NCBI RefSeq assembly: GCF_003334385.1
Contig: NZ_QOWN01000015.1
Length of the DNA stretch: 64,000 nt
DNA from: Escherichia coli
GTDB taxonomy: Bacteria; Pseudomonadota; Gammaproteobacteria; Enterobacterales; Enterobacteriaceae
Reading direction: 5' to 3' (one strand)
In this document: positions 26,135-59,020 of the stretch, piece after piece
Layout of the letters: each line of letters begins with the position of its first letter
How positions within the stretch are numbered: position 1 is the first letter of the stretch
Notes under the pieces: model-generated
The model's database searches: none
What the model saw: only the letters and a program-made list of their open reading frames with translations
Told to the model about the DNA's origin: nothing
Program-made: the position numbers and the translations under genes

Positions 26135-27103
26135 TTATGCGAGAACCAAATCCCCCTGCGGATGGCAGGAGCAGGCCAGTACGTAACCTTCAGCGATTTC
26201 GGCGTCGGTCAGCGTCATTGTGCTGCTCACCGTATATTCACCGGAAACCACTTTTGTCTTACAGCAGCCGCAAACACCCGCACGGCAGGCAGCGACAACC
26301 GGAACGTTATTGCTTTCCAGCGCCTCCAGTAGCGTGGTGCCAACCGGGGCGTAAAATTCTCGTGCCGGTTGCAGTTTGGTGAATTTCAGACCGCTGGTCG
26401 CCGCTTCTGCTACTGGGGTGAAGAATTTCTCTTTAAAGAAACGCGTCACGCCGAGCGCTTTCACTTCCTGCTCTACCCAATCCATATACGGAGCCGGGCC
26501 GCAGGTCATCACGGTACGTGAAGCTAAGTCAGGTACACCTGCCAGCAGTTCGCGAGTGAGACGACCAGCGATAAAGCCTTCGGTAACGTTATTTTCTGCC
26601 ACCAGCGTTACCGGATAGTTACGCCACTCATCGGCGAAAATAACATCCTGCGGCGTACGCACGTTGTAGATCACCCGCACATCGGCCTGTGGACGGTTCT
26701 TCGCAAGCCAGCGACGCATCGACATAATCGGCGTGACGCCGCAGCCTGCCGCCAGCAACAGGAATTTATCTTCTGCTTTATCGTCGCAGGTAAATTCCCC
26801 CATCGCGTCCGAAAGCCAGAGATAATCACCGCGTTTTACATCGCGCGTCAGCCACTGGGAGCCGACACCGTCATCAATCCGCCGCACGGTCAGGGTGATA
26901 TATTCACTCACGCCTGGCGTGGAGGAAATGGTGTAAGCACGCAGCGTTTCCGCTGAGTTTCGCACGCTGACCAGTGCATATTGCCCGGCGCGATATGGGT
27001 AGTAATCGTGGCAAATCAGGGAAATCGTCCACACATCCGGCGTTTCTTGCGTAATGTGATGAACCTGCATCCGCCACGGGCATTGATTCGTTGGCATCGT
27101 CAT
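26135..27103 (-). CDS. hcr: NADH oxidoreductase Hcr (FAD/NAD-binding plus 2Fe-2S ferredoxin domain), 322 aa
   Basis: C-terminal CRAGVCGCC...C 2Fe-2S motif; lies directly downstream of hcp. Confidence 0.95.
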   Translation of the reverse strand: MTMPTNQCPWRMQVHHITQETPDVWTISLICHDYYPYRAGQYALVSVRNSAETLRAYTISSTPGVSEYITLTVRRIDDGVGSQWLTRDVKRGDYLWLSDAMGEFTCDDKAEDKFLLLAAGCGVTPIMSMRRWLAKNRPQADVRVIYNVRTPQDVIFADEWRNYPVTLVAENNVTEGFIAGRLTRELLAGVPDLASRTVMTCGPAPYMDWVEQEVKALGVTRFFKEKFFTPVAEAATSGLKFTKLQPAREFYAPVGTTLLEALESNNVPVVAACRAGVCGCCKTKVVSGEYTVSSTMTLTDAEIAEGYVLACSCHPQGDLVLA

Positions 27104-31425: not shown

Positions 31426-33084
31426 ATGATTCTTGAGCGCGTTGAAATTGTGGGTTTTCGCGGTATCAACCGTTTGTCGTTGATGCTGGAACAAAACAAC
31501 GTCCTGATTGGGGAGAACGCGTGGGGTAAATCCAGCTTGCTGGACGCCTTAACTCTGCTGCTATCGCCAGAATCAGATCTCTACCATTTTGAGCGCGACG
31601 ATTTCTGGTTCCCGCCGGGAGATATCAACGGGCGAGAACATCATCTGCATATTATTTTGACCTTCCGCGAATCGCTGCCAGGCCGACATCGGGTTCGCCG
31701 TTATCGGCCGCTGGAAGCGTGCTGGACGCCATGCACCGATGGCTATCACCGTATTTTTTATCGTCTGGAAGGGGAGAGTGCGGAAGACGGCAGCGTGATG
31801 ACACTGCGCAGTTTTCTCGATAAAGACGGACATCCGATTGATGTCGAGGATATTAACGATCAGGCACGCCATCTGGTGCGTTTAATGCCGGTGCTGCGCT
31901 TGCGTGATGCCCGTTTTATGCGCCGTATTCGTAACGGCACGGTGCCAAATGTCCCTAATGTGGAAGTCACCGCGCGCCAGCTCGATTTCCTCGCCCGTGA
32001 GTTATCCTCACATCCGCAAAATCTCTCTGATGGGCAGATTCGTCAGGGACTTTCCGCAATGGTACAGCTGCTTGAGCATTATTTCTCTGAGCAGGGGGCC
32101 GGACAGGCGCGATATCGTTTAATGCGGCGGCGAGCCAGCAATGAGCAACGAAGCTGGCGCTATCTGGATATCATCAACCGGATGATTGACCGACCTGGTG
32201 GGCGCTCGTATCGGGTTATTTTGCTCGGCCTATTTGCTACTTTGTTGCAGGCAAAAGGCACATTGCGACTGGATAAAGACGCCCGTCCATTGTTGCTGAT
32301 CGAAGATCCAGAAACCCGTTTACACCCCATTATGCTTTCAGTTGCCTGGCATCTGTTGAATCTTCTGCCATTGCAGCGCATTGCCACCACCAACTCGGGT
32401 GAGTTGCTTTCGTTAACGCCGGTAGAGCATGTTTGCCGACTGGTACGTGAGTCCTCGCGCGTTGCCGCCTGGCGTCTGGGGCCGAGTGGCTTGAGTACCG
32501 AAGATAGCCGACGCATATCCTTTCACATTCGTTTTAACCGTCCGTCATCGCTGTTTGCACGCTGCTGGTTGCTGGTGGAAGGGGAAACGGAAACCTGGGT
32601 TATCAATGAACTGGCGCGTCAGTGCGGACATCATTTTGATGCCGAAGGGATCAAGGTCATTGAGTTTGCCCAGTCCGGGCTAAAGCCACTGGTTAAATTT
32701 GCCCGCCGAATGGGGATTGAATGGCATGTACTGGTCGATGGCGATGAAGCAGGGAAGAAATATGCCGCTACGGTACGCAGCCTGTTGAATAACGATCGGG
32801 AAGCCGAACGAGAACATTTAACGGCGTTACCGGCGCTGGATATGGAACATTTTATGTATCGCCAGGGATTTTCCGATGTGTTCCACCGCATGGCGCAAAT
32901 CCCGGAAAATGTACCGATGAATCTACGCAAAATTATCTCGAAAGCGATCCATCGCTCTTCCAAACCCGATCTTGCCATTGAAGTGGCAATGGAGGCAGGA
33001 CGTCGTGGTGTGGACTCCGTACCGACGCTGCTGAAAAAAATGTTCTCACGCGTGCTGTGGCTGGCGCGCGGTCGCGCGGATTAA
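31426..33084 (+). CDS. ybjD: OLD-family ATP-dependent endonuclease homologue YbjD (ABC-ATPase N-terminus plus Toprim C-terminus), 552 aa
   Basis: N-terminal Walker A-like GENAWGKSSLLDAL; C-terminal region with the acidic LLVEGETE...DGDEAG pattern typical of Toprim; 4-bp convergent overlap with ybjX. Confidence 0.85.
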   Translation: MILERVEIVGFRGINRLSLMLEQNNVLIGENAWGKSSLLDALTLLLSPESDLYHFERDDFWFPPGDINGREHHLHIILTFRESLPGRHRVRRYRPLEACWTPCTDGYHRIFYRLEGESAEDGSVMTLRSFLDKDGHPIDVEDINDQARHLVRLMPVLRLRDARFMRRIRNGTVPNVPNVEVTARQLDFLARELSSHPQNLSDGQIRQGLSAMVQLLEHYFSEQGAGQARYRLMRRRASNEQRSWRYLDIINRMIDRPGGRSYRVILLGLFATLLQAKGTLRLDKDARPLLLIEDPETRLHPIMLSVAWHLLNLLPLQRIATTNSGELLSLTPVEHVCRLVRESSRVAAWRLGPSGLSTEDSRRISFHIRFNRPSSLFARCWLLVEGETETWVINELARQCGHHFDAEGIKVIEFAQSGLKPLVKFARRMGIEWHVLVDGDEAGKKYAATVRSLLNNDREAEREHLTALPALDMEHFMYRQGFSDVFHRMAQIPENVPMNLRKIISKAIHRSSKPDLAIEVAMEAGRRGVDSVPTLLKKMFSRVLWLARGRAD

Positions 33085-34073
33085 CCGCGAAACATCGTGG
33101 CCATTTGTGGCTGAATAGCGTCGAGCATCTCATAGCGCCGACGGTATTCAGCCCGTTTTTTACTGGCGATTTCGGCAATCTCTTTTCGTGCTATCTGTGC
33201 TGGAAGGCGGTAATGGCGTTCAGCATCACATACGCCGCCAACCGATTCCCAGAAAGCGTTGTAATCAGCGTGGATCTTGCCTTCTTTATCGCGATAACGC
33301 AGGCTGCGGTAAATATGCGTTTCATTGCTGACGGCAATAATCTGCTCTACCTGCAAACGTTGGGCAAACAGACAGGCCGCTTCCATCACGAGGCGTTTGG
33401 GAAATAGCCCGTGGCAGGCTTTCGTCGCATTCTGGATTTCCTGATGTGGAATTTCCCATTTTGCGCCTTGCAGTCCGCCAATAAACATCGTTCTTTTCCC
33501 CTGATATTCACACAGGGTAAACGTGATCTCTGCCAGAGGAATACCTTCGCTGTTGCGGAACAGGATTGTGCTGTCACCTTCTTTATCCATTGAGATCATC
33601 ATGGTCAGCTCAAGCGTGAACTGCTCGCCGTTTTTGCCTTCCAGCTTCGCCAGTTGCAGCCCGGGGGTATTCAAATATAAGCTGAATTCTTCCGCCGACA
33701 TACATTCGCGGAGTAACGCATAATGGTAACGTAACGCCTCCAGCAATTGCTTACGGCTAAGATTCGCCGCAAGGTAAGGGCGATGCAGACGCACAGGCAG
33801 TCGCGGCTGGCGCGTTAACAATACATTGAGATTAGGCCAGTGGGAAAGTTCGTTCATCCACTCAACGCTTAAACGCGGCATAATCAACGAGCGCAGCAAA
33901 AATTTCTGGCGAAAACTACGGCGATGCCAGAATTTACCCGGCCGACACTGTCCACGTGCCAGACTAAGAAAAAGTGACAGGCTGCTGAGAGATTCAGATG
34001 GCGTAAAGGTCCGTTCAGTTAGCTGCGACATATTCATGAAATCAATGGTTATACATGGCGTCGATTTCACCAT
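33081..34073 (-). CDS. ybjX: VirK/DUF535-family protein YbjX, up to 330 aa (start ambiguous between 34073 and the downstream MNMSQL Met)
   Basis: ORF translation; synteny upstream of macA. Confidence 0.8.
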   Translation of the reverse strand: MVKSTPCITIDFMNMSQLTERTFTPSESLSSLSLFLSLARGQCRPGKFWHRRSFRQKFLLRSLIMPRLSVEWMNELSHWPNLNVLLTRQPRLPVRLHRPYLAANLSRKQLLEALRYHYALLRECMSAEEFSLYLNTPGLQLAKLEGKNGEQFTLELTMMISMDKEGDSTILFRNSEGIPLAEITFTLCEYQGKRTMFIGGLQGAKWEIPHQEIQNATKACHGLFPKRLVMEAACLFAQRLQVEQIIAVSNETHIYRSLRYRDKEGKIHADYNAFWESVGGVCDAERHYRLPAQIARKEIAEIASKKRAEYRRRYEMLDAIQPQMATMFRG

Positions 34074-34187
34074 TGCGTATCTTAACCAAACATCAATAGT
34101 GTGATTACTAACGTAAATTTTAGGGTTTTGTTGATATTTCGTTGAAGTTAATGACCCGGATTGGCATATGGAGTATTCAGAAAATTT

Positions 34188-54359: not shown

Positions 54360-55673
<1,314 letters not shown>

Positions 55674-56183
55674 TACCCAATTTTTCTGAATCTAAAAAGC
55701 GCCTGCGGGCGGTTTTTGCATGAGATTAATTAACTGAAAATAAAAGGGATTTATTTTCAGGTGTCCATATAATGTCCATCTTTGAAACAAAAAAGCCCGC
55801 AGTTTTTACGCTACGGGCTTTGTTTTTCTTTGTGACTTGCGTGTGAGGGTGCTACTTTCGACCGAACCTTTGGCAACCGGATAGCGGGGGCTTTCACCCC
55901 CGCTGCGGTTTCTTACGGTTTACACTGCAAGAACGCCGCAAATTCTGACCACATGATGTTAAGTCTGAACTCACACGGCGAACGGTGTATCATCCAGACT
56001 GTCAACAACATGGTTAAGCATAAAATGCTCACGATGATCGTTTTTTGCGGCATAGCGCTTGCTCCTTTTTCAAAGAGGCGCTAACCTTCCACTTGCGAAG
56101 GTTAGATGGTTAGGGCCTCGGGTTAAACAAATGTTTGACTCGGGGCCTTTTCACATCCGGCCTTCAGGTAATCCTTCCAGCCG

Positions 56184-56486
56184 TCAGCCGAAAGGCACCC
56201 GCGCGTAATGTACAGTTTTTGACTGGGAGGTGCAATCGCCCAGGGGGAGGCTGAGTTGATCCCTTCCCCGGTGGCATGATTTGAAAGCGTCTGCGGGGAC
56301 GACTCCCCGTTCTTCGGTGGGTTGCGGACGGCATACGGTTCTCACGACAAACTCGTGCGTCACAAAGGTGGCGCTGCATTCAATGTTGTTGCACTGGTAA
56401 TATTTCTCCCTGATTGTTCCTGTATCGTTGGCGTCGCGGCTTGTTCTGGTGCGGGTACTTGCTCCGCAGTATGGGCAAGGATGCAT
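56184..56486 (-). CDS. ogr: Ogr/Delta-family zinc-finger late transcription activator, 100 aa
   Basis: N-terminus MHPCPYCGASTRTRTSRDANDTGTIREKYYQCNNIECSATFVTHE matches the P2 Ogr C-x2-C...C-x4-C zinc finger and flanking residues. Confidence 0.75.
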   Translation of the reverse strand: MHPCPYCGASTRTRTSRDANDTGTIREKYYQCNNIECSATFVTHEFVVRTVCRPQPTEERGVVPADAFKSCHRGRDQLSLPLGDCTSQSKTVHYARVPFG

Positions 56487-56527
56487 GATGGTCCCCCTGG
56501 CTGAAACGGGGTGGGCTCGCGCTCATT

Positions 56528-57673
56528 CTAGCCAGTCGTGGCGCGCTCTGCTATCCAGTCTGCGATTTTTGCTTCCAGCTCCAGTCTGGTGGTGAAGCCG
56601 CTGTCGTCGATGACGTGCTCAATGCGCGAAATAACCCAGTCCTGATTGTCAATGTCGCTCTTGAACCCGGATACCGTGCCGTGCATCTCCGGATACAGGT
56701 CGGCGCGTCCGCGCGCCAGCGTGATGCTGAATTCTGCTGCACCCCGCTGAAGTTGCTGCCAGCGTGCGGCAGCTGCGCGACGCGCGGCTTCTTCGTTCGG
56801 GTAGGTTTTTCTCAGCACATACACATTGCCTTCTGCGCCTTCCATGTATCCACCCTCCCGTGAACTGCTTTTCTCCGGCTTCTGTGTGGTTTTCGCGTTT
56901 CGCTTTTTCACGTTCACGGCCTTCTTCTGGCCGAACTTTAAATCCAGCCAGTAAGCTTTCACTCCGGTATAGGCTTTTCTGTCAGCAATGCGAAAGCGAT
57001 GACTGTCGCCATCCGAGCGGGTCAGGGCGAATGAGGGGAGGGCGCGCCCGCTGGCTGTCACACCGCCACCCGGCAGAATGAACAGCAGGCATCCGTTTTT
57101 TACGGTGGTTATTGCACCCAGCATGTCAGCCATGCGCGTGAGGAACGAGATGTCGCTTTCCTCTGTCTGGTCTGCATGGTCGATTTCGATATTCATCAGC
57201 ATTTCGCTGATTTGTGCTTTCAGTCCGTAACGGTGCGCGATGGCAGATACCACACGCTCAACGGTCACGTCATGCCAGGAGACTTCGCGTTTCACGTTAA
57301 ACTCTTCGCGAAAATCCGCACTGTTCGCGGATATGGTCAGCTTATCCGGCGGACCTTCGTGGCTCACTTCGTCCACCACAAACGTTCCCTTGCGAGTGAG
57401 GCTTTCACCTTTCCATCCCATCGCCAGCGATAATCGTGTTCCGCGTTCCGGAAGTACCACCCCGCCCTCGGCGTCGTCGATTTCCAGTGTCACCCTGTCA
57501 GCCTCAAAACCCCTGTTGTCTGTCATGGTCAGGCTCATGATGCGCTGCGTGATGTTCTTCAGGCTGGCATCTTTCCCTTCCAGTGTGATAGTGAAGTCTG
57601 GCACCCTAACGGTATCTTCCGCTGCATCCAGTGCGCTGTTGATGTGATGTGTTACTGATTCAGTGATGCTCAT
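56528..57673 (-). CDS. P2 gpD-like tail protein (late control D), 381 aa
   Basis: Resembles P2 gpD (…LSLAMGWKGESLTRKGTFVVDEVSHEGPPDKLTISANSA…, …SGFKSDIDNQDWVISRIEHVIDDSGFTTRLELE…). Confidence 0.8.
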   Translation of the reverse strand: MSITESVTHHINSALDAAEDTVRVPDFTITLEGKDASLKNITQRIMSLTMTDNRGFEADRVTLEIDDAEGGVVLPERGTRLSLAMGWKGESLTRKGTFVVDEVSHEGPPDKLTISANSADFREEFNVKREVSWHDVTVERVVSAIAHRYGLKAQISEMLMNIEIDHADQTEESDISFLTRMADMLGAITTVKNGCLLFILPGGGVTASGRALPSFALTRSDGDSHRFRIADRKAYTGVKAYWLDLKFGQKKAVNVKKRNAKTTQKPEKSSSREGGYMEGAEGNVYVLRKTYPNEEAARRAAAARWQQLQRGAAEFSITLARGRADLYPEMHGTVSGFKSDIDNQDWVISRIEHVIDDSGFTTRLELEAKIADWIAERATTG

Positions 57674-57733
57674 GATATCCCTCCCGTGTGCGTATCATCC
57701 CACGCGTACCTTGTCGTTTCTGTCCGGCTCTGT

Positions 57734-57751
57734 TGTAAAAAAATCCCCACA
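57734..57751. promoter_or_regulatory. TGT-N12-ACA dyad, the signature of Ogr-dependent P2 late promoters, in the D/FI divergent intergenic region
   Basis: tgtaaaaaaatccccaca; centre is about 85 bp upstream of the FI ATG (57827) and about 70 bp upstream of the D ATG (57673). Confidence 0.45.
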
Positions 57752-57826
57752 GCCCGCATCAGGTGAGGGCTGTGCGCCAATGGTGGATTATTCAGGCGAG
57801 CATAAACACAACTGATGGTGAATCGT

Positions 57827-59020
57827 ATGGCTGAAAAACGATTTCACGGTGTGCGCGTCACGGAGAATACCGACCTTGTGACGGCCATTAATGACGTTGA
57901 TTCCAGCGTCATTGGTATTGTTGCCGTTGCAGATGATGCGGATACCGGGCAGTTCCCCCTTAACAAGCCAGTGCTGATTACCCGTGTATCTTCTGTTCTG
58001 GGGAAGGCCGGGAAAGCGGGCACGCTTTATAAGGCCCTTAAAGCGATATCTGACCAGGTCAGTACACGGGTGATTGTCGTTCGCGTGGAGGCGGCAAAAG
58101 AGGGGGCTGAGAATAAAACACAGGATCAACTGGTCATTGGTACCACGGAAGAAGACGGAAGCTACAGCGGTATGCAGGCGCTTCTGGTTGCCGAACAGAT
58201 GGAAGGTATTGGTTGCCGACCCCGCATTCTTGCCGCTCCGGGCCTTGAATCGGATGCTGTCACGGCTGCACTGGTGACTGTTGCCGGAAAAATGCGCGCA
58301 TTTGCGTATTCCGGCTGCCCTGGCTGCACAAAACCGTCCGATGCTATTGCGTTCCGTAAAAAGATTTCCGGTCGCGAAATCATGCTTCTGTGGCCTGATT
58401 TCATTGCGTTCAACCCGGTGTCCGGTAAAAACGAAACCTTCCCGGCTGCGGCGTATGCGTGCGGTCTTCGTGCCCGACTCGACCATGAACAGGGCTGGCA
58501 TCGCTCCCTTTCTAACATGCCTGTGAAAAATGTTCTTGGGGTGTCAGCGTCTGTTTCCTGGTCACTTCAGGATGAAAACAGCGATGCCAACACGCTGAAC
58601 AACAGCGAGGTGACCACTCTTATTCACCAGGGCGACGGCTCCTTCCGTTTCTGGGGTAACCGTACGCCGGAAACTGCGGAGTACATCTTTGAGGTGTACA
58701 CACGTACGGCGCAGCAACTGGCTGACACCATTGCGGAGGCGCAACTTCAGATAGTGGATTCACCGCTTACGCCTGCCAATGCTAAGGATGCCGTGAGCGC
58801 TATCAAGGCAAAGCTGGATGCACTGGTGACAGCCGGAAAACTCATCGGGGCTGAGTGCTGGTTCGATATCATCGACAACGGCACAACCAGTCTTCGTCAG
58901 GGCATTGTGCGTATTCGCTACAAATACACGCCTGTTCCGCCGATGGAGTGTATGGAACTCTATCAGACGTTTACCGACGAGTTCTTCAGCTCTGCTTTTG
59001 CATCTCTTGGAGGTAGCTAA
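57827..59020 (+). CDS. Contractile tail sheath protein (P2 FI-like), 397 aa
   Basis: MAEKRFHGVRV..., FPLNKPVLITRV, DHEQGWHRSLSN, FRFWGNRT, YTRTAQ motifs match P2 FI; start trimmed to ATG 57827. Confidence 0.9.
   Translation: MAEKRFHGVRVTENTDLVTAINDVDSSVIGIVAVADDADTGQFPLNKPVLITRVSSVLGKAGKAGTLYKALKAISDQVSTRVIVVRVEAAKEGAENKTQDQLVIGTTEEDGSYSGMQALLVAEQMEGIGCRPRILAAPGLESDAVTAALVTVAGKMRAFAYSGCPGCTKPSDAIAFRKKISGREIMLLWPDFIAFNPVSGKNETFPAAAYACGLRARLDHEQGWHRSLSNMPVKNVLGVSASVSWSLQDENSDANTLNNSEVTTLIHQGDGSFRFWGNRTPETAEYIFEVYTRTAQQLADTIAEAQLQIVDSPLTPANAKDAVSAIKAKLDALVTAGKLIGAECWFDIIDNGTTSLRQGIVRIRYKYTPVPPMECMELYQTFTDEFFSSAFASLGGS

Follow-up and report, generated by a model that had tools for sequence, protein, structure and literature searches.

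The window analysed here is a 64,000-nucleotide stretch of the Escherichia coli chromosome (RefSeq assembly GCF_003334385.1, contig NZ_QOWN01000015.1), in which a P2-like prophage lies directly after serS (54381..55673). The order is a hok/gef-like gene, an ogr/delta-like gene, D, a 153-bp gap, FI-FII-E-T-U and the tail-fibre genes; the ogr/delta-like gene, D and the tail-fibre genes are on the minus strand, and FI, FII, E, T and U are on the plus strand. Gene D (56528..57673, minus strand) encodes a 381-aa tail protein of the late control D family (PHROG phrog_52, E = 6.7e-153; PGAP), and the gene for the 397-aa tail sheath protein FI (57827..59020, plus strand; PHROG phrog_23, E = 1.8e-112; PGAP) leads the FI-FII-E-T-U operon. 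The gap between them (57674..57826) is bounded by the two start codons, that of D at 57673 on the minus strand and that of the sheath gene at 57827 on the plus strand, and the limits of both genes agree with those that PGAP gives for a 99.9%-identical E. coli genome. The gene for a 100-aa ogr/delta-like zinc-finger activator (56184..56486, minus strand; Pfam Ogr_Delta PF04606, E = 1.6e-15) is located 41 bp downstream of D; PGAP names its product 'ogr/Delta-like zinc finger family protein', and this Ogr homologue carries four cysteines in a CxxC...CxxxxC motif. At the end of the prophage, directly downstream of ogr, a hok/gef-family toxin gene (55913..56200, minus strand) is annotated by PGAP. 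The Rfam family sok (RF01794) gave a sub-threshold match at 56043..56200 (48.3 bits vs. a gathering score of 59), and phage P88 has a similar hok-like gene after D.

An intrinsic-terminator-like hairpin, CGCCCTG-gtgt-CAGGGCG followed by TTTTT, was read from the sequence directly after U (63427..63449, plus strand) and is the probable end of the FI-U transcript. The remainder of the prophage is seen in locus L001, its 99.9%-identical copy in E. coli G1/2 (NZ_CP060083), where G, H, I, J, W, V, S, R, the lysis genes, X, L, M, N and O are on one strand and P and Q are on the other. The FI-U block is inverted compared to P2, and D, together with ogr, is thereby cut off from the FI promoter. Since D cannot be read from that promoter, a D promoter of its own is required within the 153 bp. 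Two further features of the layout were recorded: L001 carries cargo between the lysis genes and R (33083..35282), consisting of a DUF6645 gene (1971 bp) and a DUF1378 gene, and P88 (locus L003, 26977..27564) has a DNA invertase beside duplicated tail-fibre genes, adjoining the inverted FI-U block.

The preliminary description had reported an exact TGT-N12-ACA dyad in the divergent 153-bp gap, about 85 bp upstream of the sheath gene, and its coordinates were confirmed. The dyad, TGTAAAAAAATCCCCACA, occupies 57734..57751, and distances of 84.5 and 69.5 bp separate its centre (57742.5) from the start codons of the sheath gene and D, respectively. The left half is extended to TGTTGT (57731..57736), and sequence and conservation together delimit a putative Ogr-type activator site, TGTTGT-aaaaaaatcccc-ACAgcc, at 57731..57754, to which no strand is assigned. 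This site is weaker than those of its relatives (cTGTTGT vs. TTTGTTGT), and its spacer is A-rich. A weaker TGT-N12-ACG, a five-of-six match to the consensus, is also present at 57687..57704 (centre 57695.5). The search of the gap against Rfam yielded no family.

The number of bare TGT-N12-ACA sites is uninformative alone. The 64-kb window contains 8 exact sites compared to 13.4 ± 3.5 in shuffled sequences, and the motif is under-represented, not enriched, in the window, L001 and P2. The expected number of exact sites per 153-bp gap is about 0.03, which makes the single dyad suggestive only. In L001, a second exact site, aTGTTGTAAGAGCGTGGCGACA (40329..40346), was located in the O/P gap, which apart from D/FI is the sole gap between divergent late genes. 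From the L001 shuffle rate, the probability that the D/FI and O/P gaps would each contain an exact site by chance is calculated as about 0.001. The strong evidence for a regulatory role comes from distant relatives, in which both the site and its geometry are kept.

Late transcription of P2 depends on contact between the activator and the alpha subunit of RNA polymerase and is rpoA109-sensitive. The P2 record (NC_001895) was used to calibrate the geometry; it lists a single 'activator binding site; pO, pP promoters' at 3057..3087 and two start sites annotated as mapped, PP at 3016 (minus strand) and PO at 3127 (plus strand), which are 111 bp apart. The TGT-N12-CCA in this region is centred at 3071.5, exactly 55.5 bp from each start, and the two flanking hexamers, TAGCCT and GAAACT, both begin 43.5 bp away from that centre. 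The unidirectional P2 promoters have a hexamer on the transcribed side only, GAAAAT at 44.5 bp for PF and CAATCT at 43.5 bp for PV, with no mirror hexamer on the untranscribed side of either. By this calibration, a hexamer starting 43.5 bp from the centre places the site at -55.5, and hexamers on both sides are the mark of a two-way promoter. The P2 activator sites are TGTTGTgtcagtgataagCCA (PO/PP), gTTGTgctgtcgattagCCA (PF) and TGTTGTctggtagttctACA (PV). Exact TGT-N12-ACA has five matches in P2, none of them at a late promoter, and the diagnostic is therefore TGTTGT with the geometry, not the literal 18-mer. A dyad consensus related to TGT-N12-ACA and dependence on Ogr are established for the P2 late promoters (PMC3931495). 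The PP' and PO' promoters predicted in phage Smp131 share the same 18-bp site, read both ways (PMC3931495), and the P2-like Ralstonia phages phiRSY1 and phiRSA1 have TGTTGT-N13-ACAACA (PMC5694545).

The D/FI gap displayed the two-sided arrangement. On the FI side, a -10-like GATTAT (57786..57791, plus strand) starts 43.5 bp from the dyad centre and would place it at about -55.5, in keeping with the FI-promoter geometry suggested in the preliminary description. A weak -35-like GTGAGG, whose role is inferred from its position 17 bp upstream of the -10, is found at 57763..57768. From the -10 position and the 55.5-bp rule of P2, the FI transcript is predicted to start at 57797..57799 (about 57798) with a leader of about 29 nt, ahead of a Shine-Dalgarno GGTGA (57817..57821, plus strand) and the ATG at 57827. 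On the D side, the hexamer GATGAT (57699..57694, minus strand), which also starts 43.5 bp from the centre, is part of an extended -10, TGgGATGAT (57702..57694, minus strand), with no -35. The geometry predicts a D start at 57686..57688 (about 57687) and a leader of about 14 nt; the Shine-Dalgarno GGGAGG (57685..57680, minus strand) precedes the ATG at 57673. The two hexamers are equidistant from 57742.5, and the predicted starts are about 111 bp apart. Both sides have a weak sigma-70-type character, and a scan of the D/FI gap with a strict sigma-70 consensus called no promoter, as expected for activator-dependent promoters. The position is that of a late-operon promoter, with D and FI-FII-E-T-U on the two sides of the site and a second site between O and P.

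To determine how far this arrangement is conserved, relatives were collected from a phage collection. Megablast gave no match against it, and the relatives were found by a sensitive blastn mode. In total, 96 loci with adjacent divergent D and FI were obtained from phages and viral contigs, representing 71 distinct gap sequences in 25 clusters that cover at least four Peduoviridae genera. Divergent D and FI were present in P88 (Xuanwuvirus), Klebsiella phages ST16-OXA48phi5.4 (Reipivirus) and 3LV2017 (Reginaelenavirus), Enterobacter phage phiT5282H (Novemvirus), Serratia phage KSP20 and many IMG/VR contigs, and P88-like and related phages have this as their standard layout. The rigid geometry allowed the gaps to be aligned without indels, anchored on the dyad centre. 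TTGT-N12-A(C/G)A was observed mid-gap in all 25 clusters, which are related phages whose counts are not fully independent. All 25 clusters had TTGT, and 24 of them had TGTTGT; the right half, ACA in 12 clusters and AGA in 13, was followed by (A/C)C. The alignment sharpens the working consensus to TTGTTGT-N9-A(C/G)A(A/C)C. An FI-side hexamer xAxxxT (consensus GAttAT) was present in every cluster, and so was a D-side TGn with xAxxxT. On the FI side, the distance from the centre to the start of the hexamer was 43.5 bp in 23 clusters and 44.5 bp in the other 2; on the D side, the same two distances were found in 22 and 3 clusters, respectively. An FI-side nTGAnn occurred at a fixed position in 14/25 clusters, inside a conserved cGTGa block and with a 17-bp spacer to the -10.

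The conservation was concentrated in these elements. Pairwise identity was 0.89 in the motif columns compared to 0.44 in the other columns from -50 to +50. The strict configuration, defined as a site with no more than one mismatch and both hexamers at exactly 43.5 bp, was found in 19 of the 25 representatives and in 0.2% of shuffled gaps. Among the close relatives L009-L011 (90-96% protein identity), 0-1 of 23 motif columns had changed vs. 12-30 of 123 others; the 12-bp spacer varies freely, and most of it had changed in these three. A 50-codon open reading frame crosses the D/FI gap of the window (57663..57815, plus strand), and the P88 record annotates a small hypothetical protein inside its own D/FI gap (L003, 33155..33286). 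The motif-like pattern of conservation, with short blocks, fixed spacing and a freely varying spacer, argues that neither is a gene. A separate observation concerns loci L007, L016, L083, L084 and L086, in which the dyad extends inward and its halves change jointly (TTGTGAC-N6-GTCACAA, TTGTCGC-N6-GCGACAA), which suggests extended, lineage-specific half-sites.

The same two-sided geometry was found in the O/P gaps of L001, P88, ST16-OXA48phi5.4, phiT5282H and 3LV2017. When a D/FI matrix built from other lineages was run over four related phage genomes, each of the four had exactly two strong sites, one at D/FI and one at O/P. As these were the only strong sites and both were two-sided, late transcription in these phages seems to be controlled from just two bidirectional regions. 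No third late promoter was found ahead of R/S/V, and the 172-bp gap upstream of R in L001 was without a site. The site of the window itself was missed when the 12-bp spacer columns were part of the matrix, because of the A-rich spacer of its lineage. With a half-site-only matrix trained on other lineages, the window site ranked second of about 128,000 positions and was the only top match with both flanking hexamers. The best match in the window, CGTTGTTGTCTGCGTCTGTCCAGAAAAA (63650..63677, centre 63663.5), outscored the D/FI site; it lies inside a tail-fibre-assembly (DUF4376) ORF, has no hexamers at ±43.5 bp, and was rejected as a real site, being probably a chance match. In the same part of the window, a perfect palindrome, TTGTGGGC-CA-GCCCACAA (TGT-N10-ACA), was noted at 63481..63498 in the 3' end of the convergent fibre-assembly ORF, and its counterpart in L001 is an exact TGT-N12-ACA, TGTGTGGGCCAGCCCACA (27081..27098).

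Taken together, the sequence data point to the D/FI gap as a compact bidirectional late promoter of the P2 Ogr/Delta type with one shared site, a reading to which we assign a probability of roughly 0.7. The part played by the dyad as the Ogr-type element for FI is the firmest component, and we hold it with high confidence. The suggestion that the same site might also serve D is very probably correct, given the mirror TGgGATGAT element at equal distance in 25/25 lineages. In the proposed mechanism, the prophage's own Ogr homologue (56184..56486) would bind the one site, TGTTGT-N9-...ACA, centred at 57742.5. Standing at about -55.5 of each promoter, the activator would recruit RNA polymerase to two divergent, weak sigma-70-type promoters. 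Rightward, P_FI would drive FI-FII-E-T-U through GTGAGG and GATTAT from about 57798, and leftward, P_D would drive D through TGgGATGAT from about 57687, probably reading through into ogr.

The bidirectional arrangement had been described earlier as not present in P2. Its D/FI location is indeed absent from P2, but the design itself exists there as PP/PO. The two regions are alike in having one central site (TGTTGT-N9-...CCA in P2) with divergent starts, xAxxxT at 43.5 bp on both sides, no good -35, and activation by an Ogr/Delta zinc-finger protein, established in P2 and predicted here. They differ in that the P2 site lies between terminase P and scaffold O, whereas the prophage site lies between D and FI; in P2 the right half is CCA instead of ACA, the strong half-site is reversed, and there is no TGn extension. 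The P2 starts are annotated as mapped, whereas those of the prophage are predicted. The other P2 counterpart is PF, which drives the FI-FII-E-T-U-D operon. The sheath operon that it serves is homologous, the strong TTGT half has the same orientation with respect to FI, the -10 (GAAAAT) is 44.5 bp away from the centre of the site, and the leader is short, but PF is unidirectional, has no mirror hexamer, has the moron gene fun(Z) upstream, and has D last in the operon. In the prophage, FI-U is inverted and D is split off with its own promoter arm. The dyads of Smp131 and of phiRSY1/phiRSA1 were likewise predicted from sequence as Ogr-type elements upstream of late operons (PMC3931495, PMC5694545); they belong to distant phages of other hosts, the Ralstonia motif has a different spacing, and no D/FI gap was treated. 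We found no description of a D/FI late promoter in the literature, and the P88 genome paper mentions neither promoters nor ogr. We therefore regard the predicted D/FI promoter as a sound addition to a known promoter class, unsurprising although not described before.

The serious rival to this two-way promoter is that the dyad serves FI only, and that D, with ogr, is transcribed from an activator-independent extended -10 promoter that lies nearby by chance. Extended -10 promoters can work without an activator, the TGn extended -10 on the D side is canonical in all 25 lineages and often accompanied by a -35 region starting with TT, and a separate conserved -10-like element precedes ogr, so that ogr would not strictly need P_D. 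An independent promoter, however, would have no reason to hold the register of the dyad, and the D-side hexamer has the same offset as the FI-side hexamer (43.5 or 44.5 bp) in 25/25 lineages, as it does in the mapped PP/PO of P2. D is also a late tail gene, for which co-expression with the other tail genes is expected by analogy with P2. On this evidence, we consider an FI-only role improbable, though deserving of attention. The preliminary description had offered the TGT-N12-ACG at 57687..57704 as a second, separate activator site for D. Despite its five-of-six match, the distance from its centre to the D ATG is just 22.5 bp, which at a 55-bp offset would put the start within the D coding sequence; moreover, it lies atop the conserved D-side -10 and the predicted D start, and relatives have no dyad there. 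With the wrong geometry and no conservation as a dyad, this assignment was abandoned as almost certainly incorrect.

Two other readings dispense with an activator site altogether. A minus-strand hairpin is formed by CACAGCCC (57748-55) pairing with GGGCTGTG (57767-74), overlapping the right half of the activator site; its folding energy is about -19 kcal/mol (z about -2), and the next bases on the minus strand are GGGATTTTTTT (T7, from the A7 run at 57737..57743), so that TGT...ACA could be a by-product of the A-run and the stem of a functional terminator. The hairpin is restricted to the sub-lineage of the window and is weakened by one substitution in L001. It is absent from the 90-94% relatives L009-L011 and from the other clusters (most with z about 0), all of which keep TGT and A(C/G)A. 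There is also no upstream gene on the minus strand to terminate, FI being on the plus strand, and a terminator scan did not call it. The hairpin with its T-run was rejected as a functional element because it is not conserved, and we regard a terminator as very unlikely. It is still less likely that the dyad arose by chance and has no part in regulation. Exact TGT-N12-ACA is no commoner in the window than in shuffles, but a site kept with its geometry through 25 lineages whose surrounding gap sequence is just 44% identical, the rarity of the strict configuration in shuffled gaps (0.2%), and the second exact site in O/P all argue against coincidence.

If the gap is indeed a two-way promoter, the activator gene itself may be among its targets. 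The ogr gene is located 34-45 bp behind D in every lineage examined, and no terminator was apparent in the D-ogr gap sequences inspected. The strong TGTTGT half always faces D, and the TGn extended -10 occurs on the D/ogr side only. The Ogr protein may thus boost its own gene via P_D, with basal P_D activity helping the loop begin. At the D-ogr junction itself (window 56487..56530, minus strand; same region in L003-L100), a -10-like (C/T)A(T/G)AAT was seen at or just after the D stop codon, TAGAAT (56530..56525) in the window. In most relatives it is followed by a hairpin, GGGAGTTCAACTCCC, in which CTCCC might base-pair with GGGAGG, the Shine-Dalgarno of ogr; in the window the sequence is CCCACCCC...GGGGGA instead. 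The junction may combine an ogr promoter with translational control of the activator.

The Ogr sequences also co-varied with their putative sites. In the motif C-x-N-X-E-C, residue X was I or F with ACA in 18/19 and L or M with AGA in 19/19, counted as distinct pairs, with L016 as the one exception and few evolutionary events behind the pattern. The split was present within both the CNN and the CQN Ogr subfamilies. The D/FI and O/P sites of one genome had the same right half in 5/5 genomes, a correlation that fits a single cognate protein reading both. The residue before the E-C of the third cysteine (I/F vs. L/M) may directly recognise the base at the centre of the right half (C vs. G). The combined proposal, that the asymmetry of the site makes the D arm self-amplifying for the activator and that this Ogr residue reads the right-half base, is tentative, and we think it somewhat doubtful as a whole. 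If the residue-base reading were true, the Ogr/Delta family would have its first rule linking a residue to the base that it recognises.

These findings leave the general view of late regulation in P2 as it was. Exact coordinates are now available for start-site and mutagenesis work at this locus, and the candidate Ogr-DNA co-variation can be used for studying Ogr specificity. The hosts of the P88-like phages and relatives concerned are Escherichia, Klebsiella, Enterobacter, Citrobacter and Serratia. For these phages, the predicted two-way promoter would explain how D is kept under late control when the FI-U block is inverted, by an apparent reuse of the P2 PP/PO design.
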